Below, in pieces: positions 8,137 to 60,065 of a stretch of DNA of 64,000 nucleotides. The notes under the pieces were generated by a model. It was given only the letters and a program-made list of their open reading frames with translations. It was not told the DNA's origin and did not search any database. Made by a program: the position numbers and the translations under genes. The stretch's first letter is position 1. Every line of letters begins with the position of its first letter. The stretch comes from an uncultured Candidatus Saccharibacteria bacterium (GTDB lineage Bacteria > Patescibacteriota > Dojkabacteria > SC72): contig CAZSUV010000001.1 of the NCBI GenBank assembly GCA_964610125.1, positions 253,240 to 317,239 of the forward strand. Reading direction: 5' to 3'.

Positions 8137-9258
8137 CTAATGCTTCATGCAATAATCTAATACTGGATCTTTTCCATTCATAATATCTTCTATCTTAGGT
8201 TCTATTAATATGTCCGGAAGTATATTATGCGAGTCATCATCTATCAATTTAAAATATTTTGATGAATATTGTATTTCAATCTTAGAATTAGGAAGAATTA
8301 ATTTTTTTATTTCTCCATAATGATTTACTCCTTGTCCTGTAGGCTGTCCTACTAAGATAGATTTTAACTTGTGCTTAATATCATATGTATTTAAAACTCC
8401 AGAAGAAAAGATTCTCCTATTAATTAAGCAATATATATGTGGGTTGCTAGCTCTTTTATAAGCTTTCAAAACAGATAATATGGGAGAGAAAAGAGAAGAA
8501 TCCCCTCCAGGGTTATTTCTTAGATCTAAGATTATCCTTTCAGGCTTATTCTTTAGGATAATTTTTATATCTTTTCTTAACTCCTTGATCGTGTATTCAG
8601 GATCCTCATGACATCGTGTGTACTTTAAGTACAGCGTAGTATCCTTCTCTTCTACGAAATAGTTATATTTCATATTTAAATACTTATTTCCTTCTATTCT
8701 ATAAATACTTGTTTGCTTTATAGGAGTATTTGAGTCAACCGCTTTAAGAGATATCGTTTTGTTATCTTCAAATGTGTACTTTATGTTATCTTCAGTATTT
8801 TGGGAAATGTATTCAATGATATATTCATCATTTAAAAATCTCGCTAATTCAGTTTTCTTATGCTCTTCATTATCAAAAACGATATATTTTTCCTCTTCTT
8901 TACAGAACTTTTTTATACTAATTCCATTAACTTTAATCAATTTCTTTCCTAAAGATTTCTCATAATCTTCTGGTATTATGAAAGGATAATAACCATCAGA
9001 TACCCATTCAAAATATATAGGGGCTCTTCGCCCATTTGTATATGTAGAAGTATGTGGGTCTTTGATTGCAGAGAGTATGGAGAGCAGGAGAAGATTAAAA
9101 TCTTCAGCTTTTAAGTCTTTGTCTTTTATCCTTTTAATTATAGATTCGCCAACGCTAAGAAACTTTTCTTTAGTTATCAAAGCGTATAGATTCTTATGTA
9201 GTAGAGGGAGATTTTGTACCAAATACTCTATATCTTCAATATATTTCTTCTTGTCCAT
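8137..9258 (-). CDS. S41-family peptidase (C-terminal processing peptidase-like)
   Basis: 373 aa; IILDLRNNPGGD motif typical of S41 peptidases; downstream Ser in RIFSSGV. Confidence 0.65.
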   Translation of the reverse strand: MDKKKYIEDIEYLVQNLPLLHKNLYALITKEKFLSVGESIIKRIKDKDLKAEDFNLLLLSILSAIKDPHTSTYTNGRRAPIYFEWVSDGYYPFIIPEDYEKSLGKKLIKVNGISIKKFCKEEEKYIVFDNEEHKKTELARFLNDEYIIEYISQNTEDNIKYTFEDNKTISLKAVDSNTPIKQTSIYRIEGNKYLNMKYNYFVEEKDTTLYLKYTRCHEDPEYTIKELRKDIKIILKNKPERIILDLRNNPGGDSSLFSPILSVLKAYKRASNPHIYCLINRRIFSSGVLNTYDIKHKLKSILVGQPTGQGVNHYGEIKKLILPNSKIEIQYSSKYFKLIDDDSHNILPDILIEPKIEDIMNGKDPVLDYCMKH

Positions 9259-9389
9259 AGGTAATTATATCATTAATACTAATTCGGGCGTTCCGTTCAC
9301 TATATAATCCGGAATAGAAATCCCGAACTGATTGGAATACAGGGAAAAACAATACTTTTGAAGTGTTCGGAATTATGTATTCCATAATA

Positions 9390-9464
9390 CGGAATGGAAG
9401 GGGCTCGAACCCTCAACCTTCTCAGTGACAGTGAGATGCTCTAACCAGTTGAGCTACCACTCCA
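9390..9464 (-). tRNA. tRNA-Asp (GTC)
   Basis: Cloverleaf folded by hand: acceptor GGAGTGG/CCATTCC, D-arm GCTC/GAGC, anticodon stem TCTCA/TGAGA with loop CTGTCAC, T-arm GAGGG-TTCGAGC-CCCTT, discriminator G. Confidence 0.8.
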
Positions 9465-9538
9465 TATTTCGTCAAAGAGTATATCAAACTATCATTTAAA
9501 TGACAATTCCCATATCCATGTGGTAATATATTACCCAT

Positions 9539-10459
9539 ATGGAAGAATGTCAAAAAATACTTTCTCTCTTTACTGCCGATATACTCCTGAAAATAGATAA
9601 GGATGGAAATATCTTGGGTATACTCCTAAATACCAAATACAATTTTGACATATCTGAATTAAAAACGGTATACCAAATCTTCTCCCCAGAAGAAAGAGTT
9701 CGAGTTAAAAGGGCAATAGCGATGGGTTTCAATAGTAGAAAGAAATTCATGGAAATCAATGAAAAGTTCGGAATAGATCAATATGTGGATGTCGATGTTG
9801 CAGAATACAAAAAAGGTATATATATGTTCATTAGATTTTTTGTATCAAACAGACAAAAAGAAGTAGAGTATGAAAGATATGTAGAAAACCTTCTAAACCT
9901 CTCAGAGAAAGATCCCCTTACTCAAGCATATAATAGACATGGACTTTTTGAAAAAGTTCGAAAACTCATATCTTTTAGTGACCCAGAGAAAAGAATAGGT
10001 ATTATATTTGTAGACTTGGATAACTTAAAGAAGATAAACGATGCTCATGGACACAAAGCTGGAGATAAAGCATTGTTAGCCATAACCAAAATTTTAGTAT
10101 CAACAGTGAGACAAAGAGATATTGTTGCAAGAATAGGAGGAGATGAATTTGCGGTAGTCGTTGAAGAAATGTCAGGAAGCCAAAGTACGGCGTATGGATT
10201 GTCCCAAAGGCTTGTAAAGGAATTTCAAAAACAAAAATCAAAAGACTCAGTAACTGCATCTCTCGGCGTACATGTATTTAAGATTGCAGATTTGTTAACA
10301 AATTCTAAGAATCCAGAAGAATTTGAAAAAGCATTTTCTAATGAAGTTGCGAAGGCAGATAATGCAACATATGAAGCCAAGCAAGCTGGTAAAAATCAAT
10401 CAAAAGTATCTAAAGAGTTCTCTGAATATTACAATGCAGAATCAATAGCATCTAAGTAA
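9539..10459 (+). CDS. Diguanylate cyclase (GGDEF domain) with ~140-aa N-terminal sensor-like region
   Basis: 306 aa; intact RIGGDEF active-site motif and RQRD (RxxD) I-site five residues upstream; AYNRHGL and FVDLDNLKKINDAHGH are GGDEF hallmarks. Confidence 0.8.
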   Translation: MEECQKILSLFTADILLKIDKDGNILGILLNTKYNFDISELKTVYQIFSPEERVRVKRAIAMGFNSRKKFMEINEKFGIDQYVDVDVAEYKKGIYMFIRFFVSNRQKEVEYERYVENLLNLSEKDPLTQAYNRHGLFEKVRKLISFSDPEKRIGIIFVDLDNLKKINDAHGHKAGDKALLAITKILVSTVRQRDIVARIGGDEFAVVVEEMSGSQSTAYGLSQRLVKEFQKQKSKDSVTASLGVHVFKIADLLTNSKNPEEFEKAFSNEVAKADNATYEAKQAGKNQSKVSKEFSEYYNAESIASK

Positions 10460-51202: not shown

Positions 51203-52270
51203 ATGGTCAAAAACTTAGAGGTTATAAAATTCATTGATCTTTTTGCAGGGATTGGGGGGATTAGAATCGCTTTTGAAAATGTTGGAGCCAAATGTATTTA
51301 TTCTTCCGAGATAGAACCTAATTGTCGTCAAACATACTTTGAGAATTTTGGAGAAGAACCGCATGGTGACATTACGCAAATAGATCCAAAGAATATTCCA
51401 GATCATAACATTCTTTGTGGGGGATTTCCCTGTCAGCCTTTCTCTATTAGCGGAAAACAAAAAGGTTTCCTTGATACTAGGGGGACTTTGTTTTTTAATA
51501 TTATGGAAATAGTAAAAGCTAAAAAGCCAGAGATTGTATTTTTAGAAAATGTTAAGAACTTATCTAAACACGATAGTGGAAATACTTTGAAAGTTATAAT
51601 AAAAGCCCTTGATGATGAAGGATATTCTGTAAAGGTTAAGGTTTTAAACGCAAAAGATTATGGAGTTCCTCAAAATCGTGAAAGAACAATAATAGTAGCC
51701 TCCAGAATTGGAGAATTTGATTTCTCAAAAGTGGAACTAGCCCCAAGGAAACCTGTTATAAAAGATATACTTAGCCAAAGTGAGAAATTTGAATATCTTA
51801 AACCCGAAGAGTATACAATTCTGGATAAAAAATATTGGAAAACACAAATAAGTGGGCTGATTTTCTGTGGATATAGAAATAAAAAAATTAGAACAAATGG
51901 TGTTCGTCCAAATACCGAACATTTATCTAGAGTTCATAAACAACCTAATAGAATATACTATTATGAAGGTACGCACCCAACAATTCCATCACAAGAATTA
52001 TCAGGAAGGTTTTGGATCTATGATGGAAAGAGAGTAAGAAAACTCACTATCAATGAATGCTTCAGATTGATGGGATTCCCTGAAGAATTTAAGAAAATAA
52101 GCTCTACACCTCATTTATATAAACAAATTGGTAATTCTGTTGCGATACCAATGATACAAGCGGTATCATCACAAATAATGTTACAATACTTCCCATATTT
52201 ATATGAGAAAGAAAAAATAAATCTATTTAAAAATCCACAACTATGTATGATGAATATGCTAGAGAATTAG
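51203..52270 (+). CDS. DNA (cytosine-5)-methyltransferase
   Basis: 355 aa; motif I DLFAGIGG; motif IV GGFPCQPFS; motif VI ENVKNL. Confidence 0.92.
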   Translation: MVKNLEVIKFIDLFAGIGGIRIAFENVGAKCIYSSEIEPNCRQTYFENFGEEPHGDITQIDPKNIPDHNILCGGFPCQPFSISGKQKGFLDTRGTLFFNIMEIVKAKKPEIVFLENVKNLSKHDSGNTLKVIIKALDDEGYSVKVKVLNAKDYGVPQNRERTIIVASRIGEFDFSKVELAPRKPVIKDILSQSEKFEYLKPEEYTILDKKYWKTQISGLIFCGYRNKKIRTNGVRPNTEHLSRVHKQPNRIYYYEGTHPTIPSQELSGRFWIYDGKRVRKLTINECFRLMGFPEEFKKISSTPHLYKQIGNSVAIPMIQAVSSQIMLQYFPYLYEKEKINLFKNPQLCMMNMLEN

Positions 52271-53364
52271 GAAGAATTTATGAACAATCATTAAAGAAAG
52301 TAAAAGAAAATGGTTTTTCAGCGATTCCAAACGGAATCTTAGAGCCAACTATGAAAGGGAATATAGAAAAGCTAATAGATAGGGTTGATAATTTTAAAGC
52401 AGTTACAAGTGTTACTATAACAAGTACTCTTAAGAAAATTATTACTCCTGATCAAGATATAAGATTGCATAAAGTAGAATTTGAGAATGGTTATTCAGGG
52501 AGATCATTAGATACGGCTGTGGTTACACCATTTTTGAAGGATAATAATTTGAAATGTATGGCTGAAAGTGGTTGGTTGACTCGTTCATTGGAACAGACCC
52601 ATCCTTTTAGTTTAGATTTCCCTGGTGCTATAAGAGATCAAGAGATCAAGGATGCTTTTCTACAGATTATCAATGATATAGAAACAAAGGGAGCAAATGC
52701 TGAAGCTATTTTGGACTATCTATTGCAGCTTTTAATAATTAAAAGAGAATCGGAAAAAATTGAAATTAGAAAGATTGAAAATGCAGATATATACATATCT
52801 GAAATTATTGAAAAATTAACTAAACATTTCAAAGAAAGCAATTCTTCTGGGACAGCTAGATTGCCGGTATTGGCTGTTTATTCAATTTATGAATGCTTAA
52901 TGAATCAAATAGCTAGATTTCAAGGGAAGGTTCTTAAACCCTTGGAAAGTCATACCTCTGCCGACCTTCGTTCAAACAGTATTGGGGATATTCAGGTTGA
53001 CAATGGAGAGGGAACTCCATTTGAAGGAGTTGAGGTTAAGTATGGGAAGCCAATTACACACTCTATGTTGGAAGATGCATATGGCAAATTTGGATCCCTT
53101 CCTGTAAAAAGATATTACTTGCTGAGTACGGCAGAACCAGAAGAAGATGAGAAAAAACTTATAGAGGATATGATAAGGAAAATAAAGGAAGAACATGGTT
53201 GCCAGGTTATTGTTAATGGTTTACTGCCAACTATTAAGTATTATCTAAGACTTTTGGAGGAACCAACACCATTTTTAAATAAATATACTGAGAATGTACT
53301 AAATGATGAAGTGGTAAAGTTGGAACATAAGCAATTGTGGAAAACAATATTAGAGAACTCTTAA
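52243..53364 (+). CDS. Putative Type II restriction endonuclease (partner of the C5-methyltransferase)
   Basis: 373 aa; overlaps the methyltransferase stop by 28 nt; PD-(D/E)xK-like arrangement D..(11)..EGVEVK. Confidence 0.45.
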   Translation: MYDEYARELGRIYEQSLKKVKENGFSAIPNGILEPTMKGNIEKLIDRVDNFKAVTSVTITSTLKKIITPDQDIRLHKVEFENGYSGRSLDTAVVTPFLKDNNLKCMAESGWLTRSLEQTHPFSLDFPGAIRDQEIKDAFLQIINDIETKGANAEAILDYLLQLLIIKRESEKIEIRKIENADIYISEIIEKLTKHFKESNSSGTARLPVLAVYSIYECLMNQIARFQGKVLKPLESHTSADLRSNSIGDIQVDNGEGTPFEGVEVKYGKPITHSMLEDAYGKFGSLPVKRYYLLSTAEPEEDEKKLIEDMIRKIKEEHGCQVIVNGLLPTIKYYLRLLEEPTPFLNKYTENVLNDEVVKLEHKQLWKTILENS

Positions 53365-53427: not shown

Positions 53428-55272
53428 TTAATCGCAGGATATTTTTGTCCATGAAGTATTTAATGTGAATGAAATCAAATCCTTAATATTCTTTTTTGTT
53501 TCAGCTTCAAGATTATTAAAACTTAGTTTGGATGTTAAACATAAAAACTTGTAAGCCAATGCTTTTTTGTTATATTTTTTTAATATCACAAAAGAGGAGT
53601 TTGACATTTTGTTGTATTTAATAGAATCATCATCCTTCAAATCCTCACCCAGTACATATTTCTGAAAATCTTCTTTTGAAAAGATGTCCTCTATCCCAGA
53701 ATCAGAATTCTTTTTATAAGGAGGAATCGTATACATTGTCTTTGATTCTATTCCATAATCCTCTTCTAGTAATTTACGATAGTTAGTCTTTGAATTTGTA
53801 TCTAAAATAACTTTGAAATTAAGACCTTGAGAAATAACAAAAGGAACAATAGTTAACATTGAGCTATCACCCCGAGCAGGAAGAATATTTGTTATGTTAG
53901 TATTTTTTGTTAGTTTTGCCATCGCTCTAATGTAATATAAATCAGAAAGGCCTTCAGTAATAACGACCTTATCATTGATTTTAAGCTGATTTATATACTT
54001 TAAGCCTATCGCTTCCGCAAGTGGTTGTAGTGAGAGATATTCGCCTTTTTTCGTGATTTCGTTTCTAAAATCGTTATAAACAAGTAATTCGTTGTTGTGA
54101 TCTTTCGTCATTCTTCTAATATTTTCTAAAAGATCATAATCAATCATATATTCTGAATGAGTTGACATAATTACAGTGTTCTTGAGAGATAATTTCTTGA
54201 GATAGTTTAATAAATCAAATTGTGCTGTAGCGTGAAAGCCATTATTCGGTTCGTCAAAAAGTAATATTCCATTATTTATTTCATTCACCTTGGCATAAAG
54301 ATAATAGTGGAATAGAAACTTTGTGTTATCAGATAAATGAAAGAAAAAGGAAGACTTGTTTTGTGTTCTTGTTGTGATTTGCAACCCTTGGTTTCGTCTA
54401 ACGGTAATTTCTAAAAATTTAAACTCAGACTCATTTAGTAATTTCTTTAGTTTATCGTTAAATTCGTTTTCCAAAGTCTCATGTAGATCTTGGTCTGAAC
54501 TTCCTAAATATTTTTTAAGATTTTCAATGCCAAGAAATTCTATGAATGTTCTTATGAGTTCTGGTTGATTATCAAAATCATTGATATTCTCTAGGATAAT
54601 TTGGTTTGGTAAAGAGGCGGTGAAATCAAATTCCTTATCAAAAAAATCTATTTGAGGAAATTGCCTAAATAACAAATTCTCAATTGTCAACGCCGAAAAA
54701 TTTAAAGGGAATGTTCTATTTTCAATTCTAATGAACCTCTTGTCTTGTTGTATATAATTAAACAAATGGTTAATTATCTCAGTTAATGAACTTATTCTCT
54801 CTAAGTATTTGTCATTATTTCCAAATATGTAATCACCATTTTTCAGTTTGATAACAGGAATCTCTTGTCCAAAACCTTTAATAAATTCTTTATATATTGA
54901 CTCTAAAGATAAGAAAAATTCTTGTAAATTAGGATTAGAGTCTATAATGGCTTGGTCAATCCCTATGGGTAAAAATAATTCTTCTTTAATAAATCTTATC
55001 TGTGTTTTTACATCAATATCATTCTTTTTAATCTGGAATACTGCTTCTAATCTTGAATCTTCGCCAGTATCTTTGTAATTTTGAAATGATGGATTGTTCT
55101 CAGGGATTAAATCATATTCAAAATTGCGGATTGCCTTTAATAGGGAGGATTTTCCAGAACTATTTCTTCCAATTATATAATATAATTCTTCCTTATTTTT
55201 TGTTTCAAACTTAATTCCCCCAGAGTCTTTGAAACCAAAACAGTTGTAGATTCGGAATGACTTTAATCTCAT
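53428..55272 (-). CDS. OLD-family ATP-dependent endonuclease (ABC-type ATPase + C-terminal TOPRIM)
   Basis: 614 aa; Walker A GRNSSGKSS; Walker B/D-loop ILLFDEPNNGFHATAQ; TOPRIM VVITEGLSD. Confidence 0.75.
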   Translation of the reverse strand: MRLKSFRIYNCFGFKDSGGIKFETKNKEELYYIIGRNSSGKSSLLKAIRNFEYDLIPENNPSFQNYKDTGEDSRLEAVFQIKKNDIDVKTQIRFIKEELFLPIGIDQAIIDSNPNLQEFFLSLESIYKEFIKGFGQEIPVIKLKNGDYIFGNNDKYLERISSLTEIINHLFNYIQQDKRFIRIENRTFPLNFSALTIENLLFRQFPQIDFFDKEFDFTASLPNQIILENINDFDNQPELIRTFIEFLGIENLKKYLGSSDQDLHETLENEFNDKLKKLLNESEFKFLEITVRRNQGLQITTRTQNKSSFFFHLSDNTKFLFHYYLYAKVNEINNGILLFDEPNNGFHATAQFDLLNYLKKLSLKNTVIMSTHSEYMIDYDLLENIRRMTKDHNNELLVYNDFRNEITKKGEYLSLQPLAEAIGLKYINQLKINDKVVITEGLSDLYYIRAMAKLTKNTNITNILPARGDSSMLTIVPFVISQGLNFKVILDTNSKTNYRKLLEEDYGIESKTMYTIPPYKKNSDSGIEDIFSKEDFQKYVLGEDLKDDDSIKYNKMSNSSFVILKKYNKKALAYKFLCLTSKLSFNNLEAETKKNIKDLISFTLNTSWTKISCD

Positions 55273-55374
55273 ATTGTTGAATTGGAAATAATATATTATT
55301 TACCTTCCTATAGCATGATTATATCACTTGAACCTTTGCTTTATATACATTTGATTATATAATGCAATATGTTA

Positions 55375-55538
55375 CCTAAACCTATTTATTTAGGCATGGT
55401 GATGAAAATCAAATCCAGGTCAGTGCGTTAGGCGGTCTTCCGTCTTGCAATCACTGACCTGGTTACTAGGGGAAACTCTAGTAGGTGAAGTAGCAATACT
55501 CACCTGTGAGCGGGAGACCACTTGTCTCAAAGCTCACA
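55375..55538. other. Highly structured ~165-nt element: five consecutive hairpins (candidate ncRNA or 5'-UTR element)
   Basis: Hairpins: CCTAAA/TTTAGG; CCAGGTCAGTG...CACTGACCTGG (11 bp, inner GGCGG-tctt-CCGTC); TACTAG/CTAGTA; GGTGA/TCACC; TGTGAGC...GCTCACA (inner GAGAC/GTCTC). Confidence 0.3.
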
Positions 55539-55573
55539 AACAATTAAATATATAACTTGGTCAGAGGATATAT

Positions 55574-56617
55574 ATGAAAAAGAAAACGAGTGTGAAGAAA
55601 AGTCGCCTATTTCTAAGATATTTAGCTTCTCCGCTTTATTTAATGATCCCTTCTACCATAAGGATCATCATCCTCTTTCTAGGAATAGAAGCCTACGATC
55701 TAATCGCAAGAATAGATTTCAAGGTTATTGTAATCCTGATATTGCTTGGTGTTGTTTCAATTCCATTAACATTTTACATACTGTACGGAATTGGTGCGGG
55801 GTTATTTTATTTAGGGAAAAAGATAATGCAGTTTTCTCCAAATAAGATAGTATTTTGGATTGTATTTTCTCTTTGTGGAATTAGCTTCTTAGATATGTTT
55901 ATTAAAACTAATGCTAATTTAGATCCTGAAACTGCTGTAGTTCCACTAGTTGTAGATATAATAGTTACAATTCTAATTATGACTGTATATGGAATAGGTG
56001 GATATGTCCGAAGCAAAGAGGAGGAAGAGATGGCTATGCAAACAGCTTCAAAACTTGCAGATGAATCAGTGGATAGTGGACTTCCAATTGATATGGGACA
56101 AATTGCCATAGGAGAGGACAAGGAGATTCAAGAAACACTTGAAAACATTGAAAGATTAAAGGAAAGTTCACACTATCCTTTTGTACACCATATTCTTAGA
56201 GACTTAGCATTAAAAGACCCAGGTGTTTTTTCTAAAATGGTTGTTGAAGCACATAAATCTTCTAAAGATAATGCATTTATAGAGCTATGGGAAAGGGTAG
56301 GTGGGTCAGCAGATGAATTAGAAAAGGATTCTCTTGTACCAAGATTTTTACAGCTAAGAAATAAAGAAGTGTTGATTGCAATGAAGATGCCCAAAGTAAA
56401 GAATCAAAACGAAGCCTCATTTATAGGTGTGAACTTACAAACCAAAAGAACACTAAGTTTTTATACACTTGAGCTTACAAAGAAAAAGAAATATGCATTA
56501 TGTAAATGGGAATATCCTTCATTGTTTAGTGATGCTGAGCATTCTTATTTGAAAGACGGACTTGAATCAAATTTAGAATCTTTCCATTGGGCTATAGCGG
56601 ATCTAGAGAATAATTAG
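55574..56617 (+). CDS. Membrane protein (4 TM) with ~200-aa cytoplasmic domain, hypothetical
   Basis: 347 aa; ATG at 55574 preferred over the overlapping track ORF 55522. Confidence 0.5.
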   Translation: MKKKTSVKKSRLFLRYLASPLYLMIPSTIRIIILFLGIEAYDLIARIDFKVIVILILLGVVSIPLTFYILYGIGAGLFYLGKKIMQFSPNKIVFWIVFSLCGISFLDMFIKTNANLDPETAVVPLVVDIIVTILIMTVYGIGGYVRSKEEEEMAMQTASKLADESVDSGLPIDMGQIAIGEDKEIQETLENIERLKESSHYPFVHHILRDLALKDPGVFSKMVVEAHKSSKDNAFIELWERVGGSADELEKDSLVPRFLQLRNKEVLIAMKMPKVKNQNEASFIGVNLQTKRTLSFYTLELTKKKKYALCKWEYPSLFSDAEHSYLKDGLESNLESFHWAIADLENN

Positions 56618-56652
56618 AGTATAATAAGAAAAGTTCTCGGGAGAGAATATAT

Positions 56653-57342
56653 ATGTTTAAAACAGATAAACTATACTTAAAGAAGAACTGGGACATTCCT
56701 ATTGAATATCACCCCACTAATACCAAAAGAATGATTATTTGCATTCCTGGGGCAGATGGGAGCGTCAGGGGGTATAAGAATAAGTACCTGAACCTAGGCA
56801 ATTATATCCAAGAAAAGAACATAGCCTCTTTCGTTAGAGTTCCAAATGATAGACCTCAAGAATTCATTGATTCTGCTGAACACTTTATTCAATATTGCTT
56901 AGATCATTCTGAAGAAATATGTGGAGAAAAGGTCTGCCCTGAGATATGGTTAATGGGATTCTCTGCGGGTGGGGCATCTATTTTATTAACTGCATGGGAA
57001 TACCCATGGGTAACAAAAATATTAGCAATCAACCCATTCTTAGGAAATGATATATTTAGAGAATTAGAGACATATTTACCCTTGTATATGGGAAAAGTAT
57101 TTGTTGTCATAGGTGAAGACGACAAAATCTGTGATCCCAATTTTACAAAGAAATATATTGAAGATAATGCTATCAAAAAGAAAGAACCTCAGATACATAT
57201 ACTTCCTAATTGTGATCATCAACTAAAAGGGGAAACAAATTCTAGAATATTATCCCAATTACCTGAATATTATTTTCTTGATAAGTATAAAACTGAACCA
57301 TTCCCAGATGGGAACAAAGGTATAAATTTATTGGATTCATAA
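56653..57342 (+). CDS. Alpha/beta-hydrolase fold esterase/lipase-like protein
   Basis: 229 aa; nucleophile elbow GFSAGG; His near the C-terminus (CDHQ). Confidence 0.6.
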   Translation: MFKTDKLYLKKNWDIPIEYHPTNTKRMIICIPGADGSVRGYKNKYLNLGNYIQEKNIASFVRVPNDRPQEFIDSAEHFIQYCLDHSEEICGEKVCPEIWLMGFSAGGASILLTAWEYPWVTKILAINPFLGNDIFRELETYLPLYMGKVFVVIGEDDKICDPNFTKKYIEDNAIKKKEPQIHILPNCDHQLKGETNSRILSQLPEYYFLDKYKTEPFPDGNKGINLLDS

Positions 57343-57343
57343 A

Positions 57344-57742
57344 GTGAAGATCTACTTAGACATTGATGGTGTAATGGTAACTTCTCATCATAAACAAATG
57401 CCATATCTTAAAGAGTTCTTAGACTTGGTATTTACAATATCAAATGGAGAGGTATATTGGTTAACTACTCACTGCCATAATGGAGATAATACAAGAGCTT
57501 TAGACTATCTCCATCTTCAAGTAGACCCAGAGATATATGAAATGTTAAAAAAGCTAAAAGCTACTAAATGGGAAACTCTTAAAACAGAGGGTATTGATTT
57601 GAACGAAGAATTTCTTTGGTTTGATGATAATATATTTGAAGTTGAATACAAAGAATTAGAGAAGGTAGGAAAAGAACATTGTTTGATTAAGGTAAAGGAT
57701 AATTTAGAAGAATTAGTTGAGCTATTAAAGGAGGAAATATGA
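57344..57742 (+). CDS. Mini HAD-superfamily phosphatase (capless, PNKP/NT5C-like)
   Basis: 132 aa with a GTG start; motif I YLDIDGVMV; motif II WLTTH; motif IV WFDDN. Confidence 0.5.
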   Translation: MKIYLDIDGVMVTSHHKQMPYLKEFLDLVFTISNGEVYWLTTHCHNGDNTRALDYLHLQVDPEIYEMLKKLKATKWETLKTEGIDLNEEFLWFDDNIFEVEYKELEKVGKEHCLIKVKDNLEELVELLKEEI

Positions 57743-58269
57743 GAGGTGCAATCATTGGAGATATTGTAGGTTCTACAAGAGAATTTGTTGAAAGAGTAAC
57801 GACAAAGGAATTTGATCTATTTCCCTATGGAAGTACATTCACAGATGATACAGTATTAACAATCTCTGTATATGATGCTTTACATAACCATATCCCATAT
57901 GATGAGGCTTTCATGAAGTGGATAGAGAAGTATCCAAACCGTGGCTACGGAGGTATGTTCTTTCAATGGATTCTTAGTAAAGAAAAGAAGCCATATGGCA
58001 GTAAGGGAAACGGAGCTGCAATGAGGGTATCTGCAGTTGGTTGGCTATTTGATACAGAAAAAGATGTTCTAGATGAAGCTAAGAAATCAGCAGAAATAAC
58101 GCATGATACTGAAGAAGGGATATTCTCAGCTCAGGCAGTAGCTATAGCAATCTATATGGGAAGGAATAAAAGAAGTAAAAAGGAAATAAAGGAATATATA
58201 GAAAAGAATTTCAAATATGATTTAAGTAGGACTATGGATGAAGTAAGGAATGAATATGAGAATTACTAG
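57739..58269 (+). CDS. ADP-ribosylglycohydrolase (ARH/DraG)-family protein, N-terminal half only
   Basis: 176 aa; GAIIGDIVGS, TDDT and GNGAAMR are ARH motifs; the second metal-site half is absent. Confidence 0.5.
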   Translation: MRGAIIGDIVGSTREFVERVTTKEFDLFPYGSTFTDDTVLTISVYDALHNHIPYDEAFMKWIEKYPNRGYGGMFFQWILSKEKKPYGSKGNGAAMRVSAVGWLFDTEKDVLDEAKKSAEITHDTEEGIFSAQAVAIAIYMGRNKRSKKEIKEYIEKNFKYDLSRTMDEVRNEYENY

Positions 58270-58567
58270 GGAACAGTACCAAGAATTATCAGAAAAGTAT
58301 TCTAAAAAACAGAAAGAATTTGAAAGGAAACTGGCAAATCTACTAGATACAAATAAAGACTACTATGACACAGCTTGTGACATATTAGATTTAGCTTCAA
58401 GGGCATATGAACTGTATTTAGGTTCTGAACTTAATGAAAAAAGGGAGATTTTGAATTTACTATTTCAGAACCTGTATTTGAAAGATGAAAAGCTAGTCTA
58501 CAAGCTGAATAAACCGTTTGATAGTATACTCGTCTGCAATGATCGTCTTGAATGGCTCCCCGAGTAG
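58250..58567 (+). CDS. Small helical hypothetical protein
   Basis: 105 aa; overlaps the previous gene by 20 nt; its last 14 nt overlap tRNA-Asn. Confidence 0.35.
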   Translation: MNMRITREQYQELSEKYSKKQKEFERKLANLLDTNKDYYDTACDILDLASRAYELYLGSELNEKREILNLLFQNLYLKDEKLVYKLNKPFDSILVCNDRLEWLPE

Positions 58568-58629
58568 GATTCGAACCTACAACCGAACGGTTAACAGCCG
58601 TTTGCTCTACCATTGAGCTATCGAGGATT
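58554..58629 (-). tRNA. tRNA-Asn (GTT), CCA encoded
   Basis: Acceptor TCCTCGA/TCGGGGA; D-arm GCTC/GAGC; anticodon stem AACGG/CCGTT with loop CTGTTAA; T-arm GTAGG-TTCGAAT-CCTAC; discriminator G followed by CCA. Confidence 0.85.
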
Positions 58630-58674: not shown

Positions 58675-59376
58675 CTATTTCTTTCTACTATTAGGATGTC
58701 TTGTACCTAATTGCATACGAATATATGCTCCAGAACCATGGGATGCACTACTAGGAACATCATAAGGGATTGGGGTAATAACAATAGCAGCACCATTAGA
58801 GAGTATTACTTTATTATCAACACTATTGCTATTTTCTGTTTGATTCTTAATTCTTGCTATTTCATTGTTAATATCATCTAAGAGCTGGAATACCTTAGTA
58901 TCTTTGTTTTTTGTAAGTCTTAAATCCCATATATTAAACCAATCCGACTTAGATTCTAATGTATACAAATATCCACCTATTGATGGGAATTGTGCTGATA
59001 TTCCATTATTCTCCGTAGGAAGGTTTCTTTGAGTTGCAAAAAATCTTGTTCTTGTGCTATCCAATGGTAAATCTTCATTACATTCATCCTTTTCTAAGTA
59101 CCAATTTACAGAATCAATTGTTACTTGATCAAAACATTTCCCATATTCTCGCATTAAAGCCTCTGTCCCTGACATATATTTATCTGTTACTGCATTCATC
59201 TGTTCCGTAATTTCTGGCCTTTGCCATATTGGTACGAATCTATGCTTAAATGGTTCTTCTACATAAGGTTCTTCGCTTGAAGGAACATTAATAATTGGTC
59301 CAGTGGAGGTTTCGGTTCTAGTAATAGATTCTTCTTGCTTAGTTGGCTCTTGAGGATCTAGTTGTGAGTCTGGCAT
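58675..59376 (-). CDS. Hypothetical protein
   Basis: 233 aa. Confidence 0.4.
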   Translation of the reverse strand: MPDSQLDPQEPTKQEESITRTETSTGPIINVPSSEEPYVEEPFKHRFVPIWQRPEITEQMNAVTDKYMSGTEALMREYGKCFDQVTIDSVNWYLEKDECNEDLPLDSTRTRFFATQRNLPTENNGISAQFPSIGGYLYTLESKSDWFNIWDLRLTKNKDTKVFQLLDDINNEIARIKNQTENSNSVDNKVILSNGAAIVITPIPYDVPSSASHGSGAYIRMQLGTRHPNSRKK

Positions 59377-59462: not shown

Positions 59463-60065
59463 ATGGACAAAAAGATCATACAAGTATCATTTGTAGGAAT
59501 GGATCCTACTGAGGCATTAAAGAAATATGCTCTAGAGAAGATATTAAAGAAGGAAAACCTCTTAGAAGAAGCAACAAAAGTAGAGGTGGTATTAAAGGAA
59601 CAAACATACAGTAGAGGTATAGAAAATGATTTTAGAGTAAATATTGATGTATATCTTCCCAAAGCATTGGTAAGAGTAGAGGAAAATGGTCCTGAGATGT
59701 ATGCAAATATAGATAAAGCAACAGATGTATTGTTTAGAAGGTTGAAACGATACAACGATCAAAAAGCACACTGGGAAGGACAAGAATCATGGAGAGTACT
59801 AGAAGCCGAGGTAGCTCAACAATCACTCTCTAATGGGCCTGAGATCGATTTAGAAGACTATACCGACTATGTACCTAAGATAGCTAAGAGGAAGATAGCA
59901 GATGATATGTCTCCACTTGAAGAGGGAGAGGCTATAGAGCGGATGGAACTAATGGGATATGATCAATACCTATTTAGAAGTAAAAAGACAAACAAAATAT
60001 CAATGATATATAGAAGAAAGCATGGAGGATATGGTTTGGTGGAACCACCTGATGATCTAGTATAA
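59463..60065 (+). CDS. hpf: Ribosome hibernation promoting factor (long HPF/RaiA)
   Basis: 200 aa; N-terminal S30AE fold pattern plus C-terminal dimerisation extension. Confidence 0.8.
   Translation: MDKKIIQVSFVGMDPTEALKKYALEKILKKENLLEEATKVEVVLKEQTYSRGIENDFRVNIDVYLPKALVRVEENGPEMYANIDKATDVLFRRLKRYNDQKAHWEGQESWRVLEAEVAQQSLSNGPEIDLEDYTDYVPKIAKRKIADDMSPLEEGEAIERMELMGYDQYLFRSKKTNKISMIYRRKHGGYGLVEPPDDLV

Follow-up and report, generated by a model that had tools for sequence, protein, structure and literature searches.

The stretch analysed here, hereafter the window, comprises 64,000 nucleotides of contig CAZSUV010000001.1 (GenBank assembly GCA_964610125.1, positions 253,240 to 317,239 of the forward strand) from an uncultured Candidatus Saccharibacteria bacterium (GTDB lineage Patescibacteriota; Dojkabacteria; SC72). 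We examined a cluster of five open reading frames (ORFs) beside a tRNA-Asn gene, which in all likelihood is what remains of a mobile element integrated at that tRNA. A first-pass annotation, made from the letters alone, had described the cluster as a five-gene operon ending at the tRNA and suggesting a pathway for the processing of ADP-ribose or nucleotide derivatives. The locus contains the following features.

55373-55504, plus strand: LOOT RNA (Rfam RF03000), forming the conserved 5' terminus of the element and probably serving as leader to ORF1.
55574-56617, plus strand: ORF1, 347 aa, with an N-terminal membrane region and a C-terminal soluble domain; intact.
56653-57342, plus strand: ORF2, 229 aa, an esterase-like serine hydrolase of the alpha/beta fold; intact.
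57344-57742, plus strand: ORF3, 132 aa, a predicted capless minimal phosphatase of the HAD superfamily; intact.
57739-58269, plus strand: ORF4, 176 aa, a truncated ADP-ribosylglycohydrolase (ARH) gene.
58250-58567, plus strand (recombinase-derived part 58260-58567): ORF5, or int', 105 aa, the 3'-terminal ~101 codons of a large serine recombinase gene.
58259-58261, plus strand: deletion junction, with ARH-derived sequence to the left, recombinase-derived sequence to the right and a GA microhomology at 58260-58261.
58553-58627, minus strand: tRNA-Asn(GTT), the target of integration, detected by ARAGORN and by Rfam at 71.7 bits; the 3' end of the tRNA gene overlaps that of int'.

The coordinates of the five plus-strand ORFs were reproduced, including overlaps of 4 nt (57739-57742) and 20 nt (58250-58269), and the gap between ORF2 and ORF3 is a single nucleotide. 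The tRNA gene is encoded on the minus strand and shares the final 15 nt of ORF5; it is therefore not a co-transcribed end of the block. Base composition is flat throughout the region, in which a promoter and terminator scan returned nothing above shuffled expectation. Scans of ORF1-5 against PADLOC, PHROGs and NCBIfam gave nothing useful beyond ARH. With PADLOC-DB 2.0, none of the five ORFs matched a family at E <= 0.1, the only PADLOC matches near the block being to an OLD-family ATPase and a C5-methyltransferase upstream of it.

The assignment of ORF4 to the ARH family was upheld by profile searches. Pfam PF03747 matched at E 3.4e-19 (70 bits, cut-off 26.2) over model positions 4-209 of 287, PHROG 6572 matched at E 8e-35, and a profile of the ORF4 family matched ARH3 at E 6e-26. 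The nearest ARH homologues, from Candidatus Dojkabacteria, are 72-79% identical and 248-258 aa long, and close relatives overall measure 248-319 aa, against 176 aa for ORF4. The alignment of these homologues with ORF4 stops at '...DEVRNEYE', around residue 174, and the next ~75 residues are missing. The N-terminal motifs GDxxGS, FTDDT and TH are kept in ORF4; the C-terminal GGDxDT motif, conserved in at least 90% of full-length homologues, is absent. In a PDB profile search, the segment missing from ORF4 aligned to ARH3 residues 247-318, which bear the GGDTDT metal-binding motif, and in ARH3 and DraG these residues complete the binuclear metal centre. ORF4 has neither the complete all-helical ARH fold (about 250-350 aa) nor a whole binuclear metal site, of which the TDDT side is present and the GGDxDT side absent, and no C-terminal ARH piece was found elsewhere in the window. 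Judging from its motifs, with the C-terminal third including the GGDxDT metal ligands gone, the ORF4 ARH is almost certainly inactive and the ADP-ribose step almost certainly dead in the window. The ARH homology ends at 58259-58261, and the final two codons and stop of ORF4 come from out-of-frame reading of the integrase fragment. The closest full-length ARH (319 aa), at positions 8979-9938 of a related locus labelled L098 (L numbers denote such loci throughout), carries a C-terminal extension of ~65 aa with CxxC...CxxC spacing, possibly a zinc ribbon, that is absent from the 249-258-aa homologues.

ORF5 had been taken for a helical protein of the proposed pathway. The first lead to its origin was a weak PHROG match to the C-terminal part of an integrase family, followed by a tblastn search against phages that gave 35% identity (E 6e-11) to the C-terminal ~100 residues of a serine recombinase (533 aa) the gene of which overlaps a minus-strand tRNA-Glu at its 3' end; ORF5 is also related to a 522-aa recombinase overlapping a tRNA-Leu. 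The orthologous locus of a close relative, L091, recovered in a metagenome scan, holds an intact 497-aa ORF with Resolvase, Recombinase and Zn_ribbon_recom domains (Pfam recombinase domains within aa 4-336), the end of which overlaps tRNA-Asn. ORF5 is 91% identical to aa 393-497 of this protein over 105 aa, and 95% identical over a 101-residue block, while the chromosomal genes downstream that L091 and the window have in common, encoding HPF, a SurA-like protein, an M23 peptidase and FtsX, show 78-84% nt identity. By its homology to L091, ORF5 is a remnant of an integrase and not a pathway protein.

An exhaustive phmmer search with ORF5 returned 1349 homologues, including full-length proteins of ~490-530 aa matched at ~385-505; a word-indexed homologue search returned one protein only. 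The N-terminal part of the recombinase was not found anywhere in the window, and the Resolvase catalytic, Recombinase and zinc-ribbon domains are absent from ORF5 and from the window as a whole. The start codons of ORF5 are ARH sequence in another frame. PDB sequence searches with ORF1 and ORF5 gave no meaningful matches. A recombinase 3' end overlapping a minus-strand tRNA is also present in L091, L087, L013, L001, L002 and L096, and identity between element copies stops inside the tRNA acceptor stem, at 58560/58561. The element-to-tRNA crossover can be read as lying just past TGGCTCC(CC), within the acceptor stem. At L096 (2-1033), a decayed serine recombinase at tRNA-His retains an N-terminal part (aa ~56-232) and the C-terminal block in different frames, with the zinc-ribbon and coiled-coil region deleted; such tails beside tRNAs appear common.

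The counterpart of the left part of the block was found in L098, which aligns to positions 55372-58261 of the window (2890 nt) at 93.8% nt identity and without large gaps, across LOOT, ORF1, ORF2, the HAD gene and ARH. At the protein level, the identities to the window are 97% for ORF1, 98% for ORF2 and 92% for the HAD protein. Beyond the junction, the L098 ARH reads on to a total length of 319 aa; ~490 nt further along comes a gene with 81% identity to a 375-aa gene that precedes the recombinase in L091. Given the full-length ARH and the downstream gene in L098, the window carries a deletion that fused the middle of ARH to the integrase tail. The ARH-side homology ends at 58261 with L098 and at 58259 with L087, the recombinase-side homology with L091 begins at 58259, and the two parents share only GA (2 nt) at the joint. 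Stitching L098 to L091 gives a deletion of about 3.25 kb, comprising the remainder of ARH, a spacer, the 375-aa gene and codons 1-395 of the recombinase.

From these alignments we propose the following history. An ancestral element of about 6.5 kb would have entered the 3' end of tRNA-Asn in a dojkabacterial host of the candidate phyla radiation (CPR) by means of its large serine recombinase. It would have carried, in order, LOOT, ORF1, ORF2, ORF3 (HAD), an ARH of about 250-320 aa, the 375-aa protein and the 497-aa serine recombinase, the last 15 nt of whose gene would overlap and rebuild the tRNA 3' end. One illegitimate deletion of ~3.3 kb at the 2-nt microhomology would then have joined ARH codon ~174 to recombinase codon ~396, taking with it the metal-binding C-terminus of ARH, the whole 375-aa gene and every catalytic or DNA-binding domain of the recombinase. 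With those domains lost, the element would no longer be able to excise. The absence of decay in the retained ARH and recombinase codons points to a recent deletion, judged against the divergence of the window and L098.

The source is a metagenome-assembled genome, and related elements with shared segments occur in the same environments, so one might ask whether assembly produced a chimeric ARH/recombinase junction in place of the intact genes of the real genome. We find this extremely improbable. The identical junction stands on the separately assembled Logan contig L004 and on the 454-kb NCBI contig, though possibly from the same reads; the coding frames and stop codon fit a clean deletion; and the 2 nt shared by the parents are far too few to make a k-mer assembler jump, which makes an artefact unlikely.

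Taking the observed homologies, breakpoint, truncations and gene-neighbourhood conservation together, it is very probable that positions ~55356-58561 of the window are the immobilised remnant of a tRNA-Asn-integrated element with a truncated ARH and an integrase tail. The first-pass annotation was right in seeing an accessory island adjoining the tRNA, and the restriction-modification (R-M)/OLD block that it placed upstream of ORF1 is present. The five-gene chromosomal operon did not stand: the cluster is cargo and backbone of a mobile element, and two of the five 'genes' are pieces brought together by a deletion, namely the N-terminal part of ARH (ORF4) and the C-terminal part of the recombinase (ORF5).

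Several points weigh against this reconstruction. Neither an attL nor a direct repeat was found at the left end, where the boundary, 55356-55372, is set only by the start of homology (at 55356 with L091 and at 55372 with L098). No second copy of the tRNA-Asn 3' end, as a remnant of attL, occurs in the window, and the right flank of L003 past the crossover is neither present in the window nor a LOOT RNA; the left att site could thus not be defined. L098 ends inside the 375-aa gene, and the ancestral structure and the size of the deletion are thus a composite of L098 and L091. For the 375-aa protein, neither Pfam nor PHROGs gave a family match, which leaves a 'replicative' label for the element unsupported. 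Finally, the ARH and int' fragments differ from their relatives only in the manner of purifying selection, which also fits continued function of the fragments. A role of the L091 375-aa protein as a replication initiator was considered and dropped, as it has no support from either of the two databases.

The preservation of the integrase tail deserves separate consideration. This 300-nt tail is a stand-alone ORF beside tRNA-Asn in at least three left-flank contexts, namely the window (block at 58260-58561), L094/L003 (498-800 and 550-851, respectively) and the JGI contig of P0244, with an identical protein sequence (100%) in all three. At the nucleotide level, the block of the window is 94% identical to that of L094, while the flanking chromosomal genes reach 65-73% nt. 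All but one of the 17-18 nt differences in the block are synonymous, the exception lying at the tRNA junction, and the last 78 nt ahead of the tRNA crossover are identical between the window and the L094/L003 copies. The ~70 nt upstream of the block in L094 hold a degenerate, indel-ridden recombinase trace (1 of 1000 shuffles reached its score), and the block itself is pristine; its conservation boundary coincides in the window and L094. Among the top 150 ORF5 homologues, 45 start no more than 15 residues from the block start and 19 are full length. An AGGA, fortuitous in origin, lies 8 nt before the ATG at 58256.

All of these features could be expected if int' were an expressed integrase fragment of ~100 aa kept by selection, for example as a decoy that binds incoming integrases of its own family and so blocks further integration or excision at tRNA-Asn. 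We nevertheless consider this unlikely. The synonymous differences could predate the truncation, having gathered within intact, selected recombinase genes, and codons 1-174 of the truncated ARH show the same pattern. The short database matches include contig-edge fragments and pseudogenes (e.g. L096), a single-sequence AlphaFold model of ORF5 has a predicted local distance difference test (pLDDT) score of 47, and the contexts number only three. Our preferred explanation, ranked above retention by selection, is that the tail copies diverged inside functional integrases and were then recently truncated. An identical left breakpoint in the window and L094, which would imply a site-specific process, was also considered and rejected: the L094 flank keeps degenerate recombinase homology, so its breakpoint lies further left than the block start.

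Only ORF1-3 in the window can still work; they are full length and, by their reading frames and substitution patterns, probably still functional. The ratio of non-synonymous to synonymous substitution rates (dN/dS) between the window and L098 is 0.06 for ORF1, 0.02 for ORF2 and 0.13 for ORF3, and 0.02 for ARH codons 1-174. In line with its earlier call as a membrane protein, ORF1 has hydrophobic segments within aa ~17-146, followed by a C-terminal soluble domain of no recognisable family, and the protein has no match in Pfam, NCBIfam, PHROG, PADLOC or PDB. It is a mosaic, with aa 6-153 matching the protein that follows LOOT in L015 and aa 181-341 matching proteins of L012 and L013.

The alpha/beta hydrolase call for ORF2 is weakly supported. 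The score against Pfam Hydrolase_4 is 26.1 bits, under the cut-off of 27, and covers the C-terminal 48 residues only. On the positive side, ORF2 matches cinnamoyl and chlorogenic esterases in PDB at E 3e-5, and its GFSAGG, GEDDKICDP and NCDHQ motifs align to GHSQGG, GTNDQVVDP and NADHR of the chlorogenic acid esterase 8SKM, in the order expected of a catalytic triad (GxSxG elbow, then Asp, then His). Homologues of ORF2 adjoin the HAD gene in 12 GTDB loci.

For ORF3, fold and motifs bear out the HAD phosphatase call. The protein has a Rossmann-like fold with motifs I DxDx(T/V), II S/T, III K and IV DD; D6, D8, K80, D94 and D95 are invariant among 39 homologues, T42 is conserved in at least 90% of them, and the motif positions follow strands 1, 2 and 4 of the structure model. 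Against Pfam HAD_SAK_2 (PF18143), ORF3 scored 18.2 bits, under the cut-off of 27.5, and an ARH-HAD fusion protein from L021 scored 21.3 bits. The HAD profile gave no meaningful match among PDB sequences, and a BFVD fold search with the HAD model gave weak HAD/FCP1-like matches only. ORF3 is thus predicted, on motifs and model, to be a capless minimal HAD phosphatase.

Whether these genes belong to an ADP-ribose pathway has to be judged from intact relatives. Co-occurrence elsewhere, set beforehand as a test of the idea, was found: the order ORF1-ORF2-HAD-ARH is common to L098 and L099, at 92-98% aa identity to the window; L097 has ORF2-HAD-ARH, and in L006 the order is HAD-ORF2-ARH, with HAD and ARH flanking the esterase. 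HAD and ARH overlap by 4 nt in the window, in L087-L090 and in L097-L099. In L021 (431-1606), ARH and HAD are fused in one complete 391-aa protein, and L020 (84-1070) may hold a further ARH-HAD fusion, with a partial ARH near the contig start. Other fusions include a 533-aa ARH-Macro protein in L035 (1728-3329, minus strand), 2 kb from a HAD homologue, and a 402-aa fusion of HAD with an HD phosphohydrolase in L078 (10001-11209).

It had been stated that the cluster matches no named system, which was too strong. ADP-ribosylglycohydrolases (ARG in that work) without a partner transferase have been described as fused or adjacent to phosphatases, mostly of the rhodanese type, but also calcineurin-like, HD and HAD (Iyer, Burroughs, Anantharaman and Aravind 2022, Viruses 14:1977, section 3.8; PMC9503650). 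Those authors predicted that the ARG strips ADP-ribose from macromolecules modified by an outside enzyme and that the phosphatase processes the released product; their systems occur in Actinobacteria, Planctomycetes and Proteobacteria and include Nudix or WYL transcription factors and chaperones. We found no Nudix or WYL helix-turn-helix (HTH) regulator and no peptide-binding chaperone among ORF1-5 or the listed neighbours; such features are present in ~42% of the described ARG systems, so their absence here is weak evidence. Pfam scans of ORF1-5 and their neighbours, and precomputed Pfam lists of L087-L090 and L097-L098, contained no ADP-ribosyltransferase or sirtuin domain, ORF1 and several element proteins being without an assignable fold.

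In the intact relatives, HAD and ARH would be translationally coupled and are sometimes fused. We tentatively favour the reading, drawn from family membership and gene context and held at somewhat less than even probability, that in such modules the ARH removes ADP-ribose from a modified macromolecule, after which the HAD takes the phosphate off the ADP-ribose-derived product so released, or off a phosphorylated nucleic-acid end. Within the element, the esterase and the membrane protein led by LOOT would play accessory parts, and the module may shield the element or its host from ADP-ribosylating toxins or defences. On the other side of the balance, the roles of HAD, ARH, esterase and ORF1 are all assigned in this indirect way. 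In distant CPR lineages the HAD gene stands far more often beside an FtsK-like gene than beside ARH, and the HAD protein may therefore serve the element more generally.

The notion of ADP-ribose processing thus gains from the co-occurrence, overlap and fusion seen in intact relatives and is not supported for this copy, in which ARH is truncated and ORF5 is an integrase tail. In its original form, all five ORFs would make up one working pathway countering toxins or defence signals by the turnover of ADP-ribose or nucleotide derivatives. Tight packing on one strand, the recurrence of ORF1-ORF2-HAD-ARH in L098, L099, L097 and L006 together with the ARH-HAD fusions, and the proposal of ARG-phosphatase coupling as a reversal of ADP-ribosylation (Iyer et al. 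2022; PMC9503650) all speak in its favour. We hold it to be very improbable all the same: ORF4 is without the C-terminal third of the fold and its GGDxDT ligands, ORF5 is a recombinase tail unrelated to any pathway, the ORF4/ORF5 overlap is a deletion scar, and PADLOC found no match.

A combined proposal goes further than our preferred reading of the intact HAD-ARH modules: that in intact relatives the LOOT-led cassette is a counter-defence module of CPR elements and, jointly, that int' is kept as integration-site immunity. We rate this conjunction as improbable, a little below retention of int' by itself. If true, the cassette (membrane protein, esterase, capless HAD, short ARH) would strip ADP-ribose from nucleic acids or proteins of the element or host and dephosphorylate the product, and a broken integrase would have become a form of integration-site immunity, a small protein hindering the integrases of incoming sister elements.

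Searches with the HAD protein placed the remnant within a wider element family. In GTDB species genomes, 242 loci of the HAD family were confirmed, most of them from CPR bacteria (Dojkabacteria, Saccharibacteria, Paceibacteria and others) and a few from Bacteroidota and Proteobacteria. Only 4 loci were found in IMG/VR, so the family is not mainly viral. We clustered the proteins encoded within 6 kb of the HAD gene at 81 loci. An FtsK/SpoIIIE-like ATPase lies directly upstream of HAD in 20 of them, a tRNA-overlapping large serine recombinase is near it in 14, an ORF2-type hydrolase in 12 and a small HTH protein in 11; type IIG and type I R-M genes, GmrSD and C5-methyltransferases are also recurrent neighbours. 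A common backbone (L015, L100) consists of ORF2, an FtsK-like gene, p235, HAD, optionally ARH, and a small-terminase-like protein. The element type of the window and L098 is without the FtsK-p235 segment, and no FtsK-like gene was found anywhere in the window. Larger members with a small-terminase-like protein (Pfam Terminase_2, 26.4 bits) and an FtsK/SpoIIIE-like ATPase were seen in L087 (7671-8105), L088 (1842-3290) and L100 (5575-8254), and one larger member is present in IMG/VR. The backbone of LOOT leader, membrane protein, esterase and HAD, with optional FtsK-like protein, p235 and small-terminase-like protein, is specific to Dojkabacteria and other CPR bacteria. A literature search on it returned nothing specific, and to our knowledge it has not been described before.

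The LOOT RNA, which the first-pass annotation had overlooked, lies 70 nt upstream of ORF1 and matches the full-length model at 59.0 bits in cmscan (gathering score 46.4). LOOT was found in the window and in L007, L008, L010-L013, L015, L024, L088, L091, L097 and L098, all of them tRNA-linked islands of the Dojkabacteria type. In 13 of 13 loci examined it stands 59-77 nt upstream of a co-directional ATG ORF, and 11 of these 13 ORFs start with membrane-spanning segments, though their sequences differ. Rfam lists LOOT (RF03000) as an sRNA, and the main text of Weinberg 2017 contains no description of it. The position of LOOT suggests a cis-regulatory element or 5' leader for membrane-protein genes carried by these elements.

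Left of LOOT, close relatives differ in what they carry: the window has the OLD-family ATPase, L098 a Gabija-like GajA/UvrD pair and a JGI contig a SocA/Panacea gene. This last contig keeps the methyltransferase and SacI-like endonuclease of the window, with SocA/Panacea in place of OLD. The defence cargo of the window consists of the following genes.

51203-52270: C5 cytosine methyltransferase, defence cargo left of the element.
52243-53364: 373-aa partner of the methyltransferase, clustering at >=90% identity with a protein that has a precomputed Pfam RE_SacI_N match.
53428-55272, minus strand: OLD-family ATPase-TOPRIM protein, defence cargo left of the element.

At the other border, a 233-aa ORF just past the tRNA (58675-59376, minus strand) has no family match, and its identity to the gene at the corresponding position in L091 is only ~29%, against 87.5% for HPF (59463-60065), the gene that comes next. 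The 233-aa ORF is a fast-evolving or replaced gene at the island border.

The main value of these results for the window is corrective. An apparently novel five-gene ADP-ribose pathway is a deletion-scarred element remnant, ORF4 and ORF5 merit annotation as pseudogene fragments, and the window itself is a case of ordinary element decay accompanied by modestly new side observations. These include the outline of a family of small elements that integrate at tRNA genes in Dojkabacteria and CPR bacteria, groups whose mobile elements have received little description; the family has a recognisable backbone and swappable defence cargo. For the orphan LOOT motif, the results supply a host group and a consistent place in the genome, as leader of membrane-protein genes on these elements. 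For the predicted ARG-phosphatase systems, the relatives would add a CPR, element-borne, HAD-type case with natural ARH-HAD and ARH-Macro fusions; the intact genes of L098 and L021 are concrete candidates for biochemistry, and the fusions provide Rosetta-stone evidence.

In comparison with known systems, the remnant resembles tRNA-targeting integrative elements and prophage-like islands with large serine recombinases. Its int' is homologous to their integrases and overlaps the 3' end of a minus-strand tRNA as in L091, L087, L013, L001 and L002, and variable defence cargo (R-M, OLD, GmrSD, Gabija-like) lies alongside; it differs in that the recombinase is cut to its last ~101 codons and the element is fixed, with no att repeat found. 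A second parallel is offered by SSV-type elements in archaeal chromosomes, which leave int(N) and int(C) remnants beside tRNA genes, their tyrosine integrase gene being split by integration itself. In both cases, a past integration has left its mark as a short integrase fragment that overlaps a tRNA; here, however, the serine recombinase stayed whole on integration, as in L091, and was truncated later by deletion.

Among the cargo, ORF4 shares N-terminal motifs and a profile match with the ARH3/DraG family (PF03747; PDB 2FOZ, 6G1P, 2WOC). The full-length Dojkabacteria relatives are short for this family (about 250 aa), and ORF4 ends before the GGDTDT segment. ORF3 differs from HAD_SAK_2 (the 'Swiss Army Knife' RNA-repair HAD) and from SCP/FCP1-type CTD phosphatases in that its HAD_SAK_2 match is sub-threshold (18-21 against 27.5 bits) and no PDB match exists at the sequence level. 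With regard to the ARG-centred systems (PMC9503650), the genes described here differ in belonging to a CPR mobile element and in having a 132-aa capless HAD and an esterase companion, with the ARH truncated in the window. The resemblance lies in the tight coupling or fusion of ARH to a phosphatase, with Macro as an additional domain in L035, and in the hallmarks of conflict systems.

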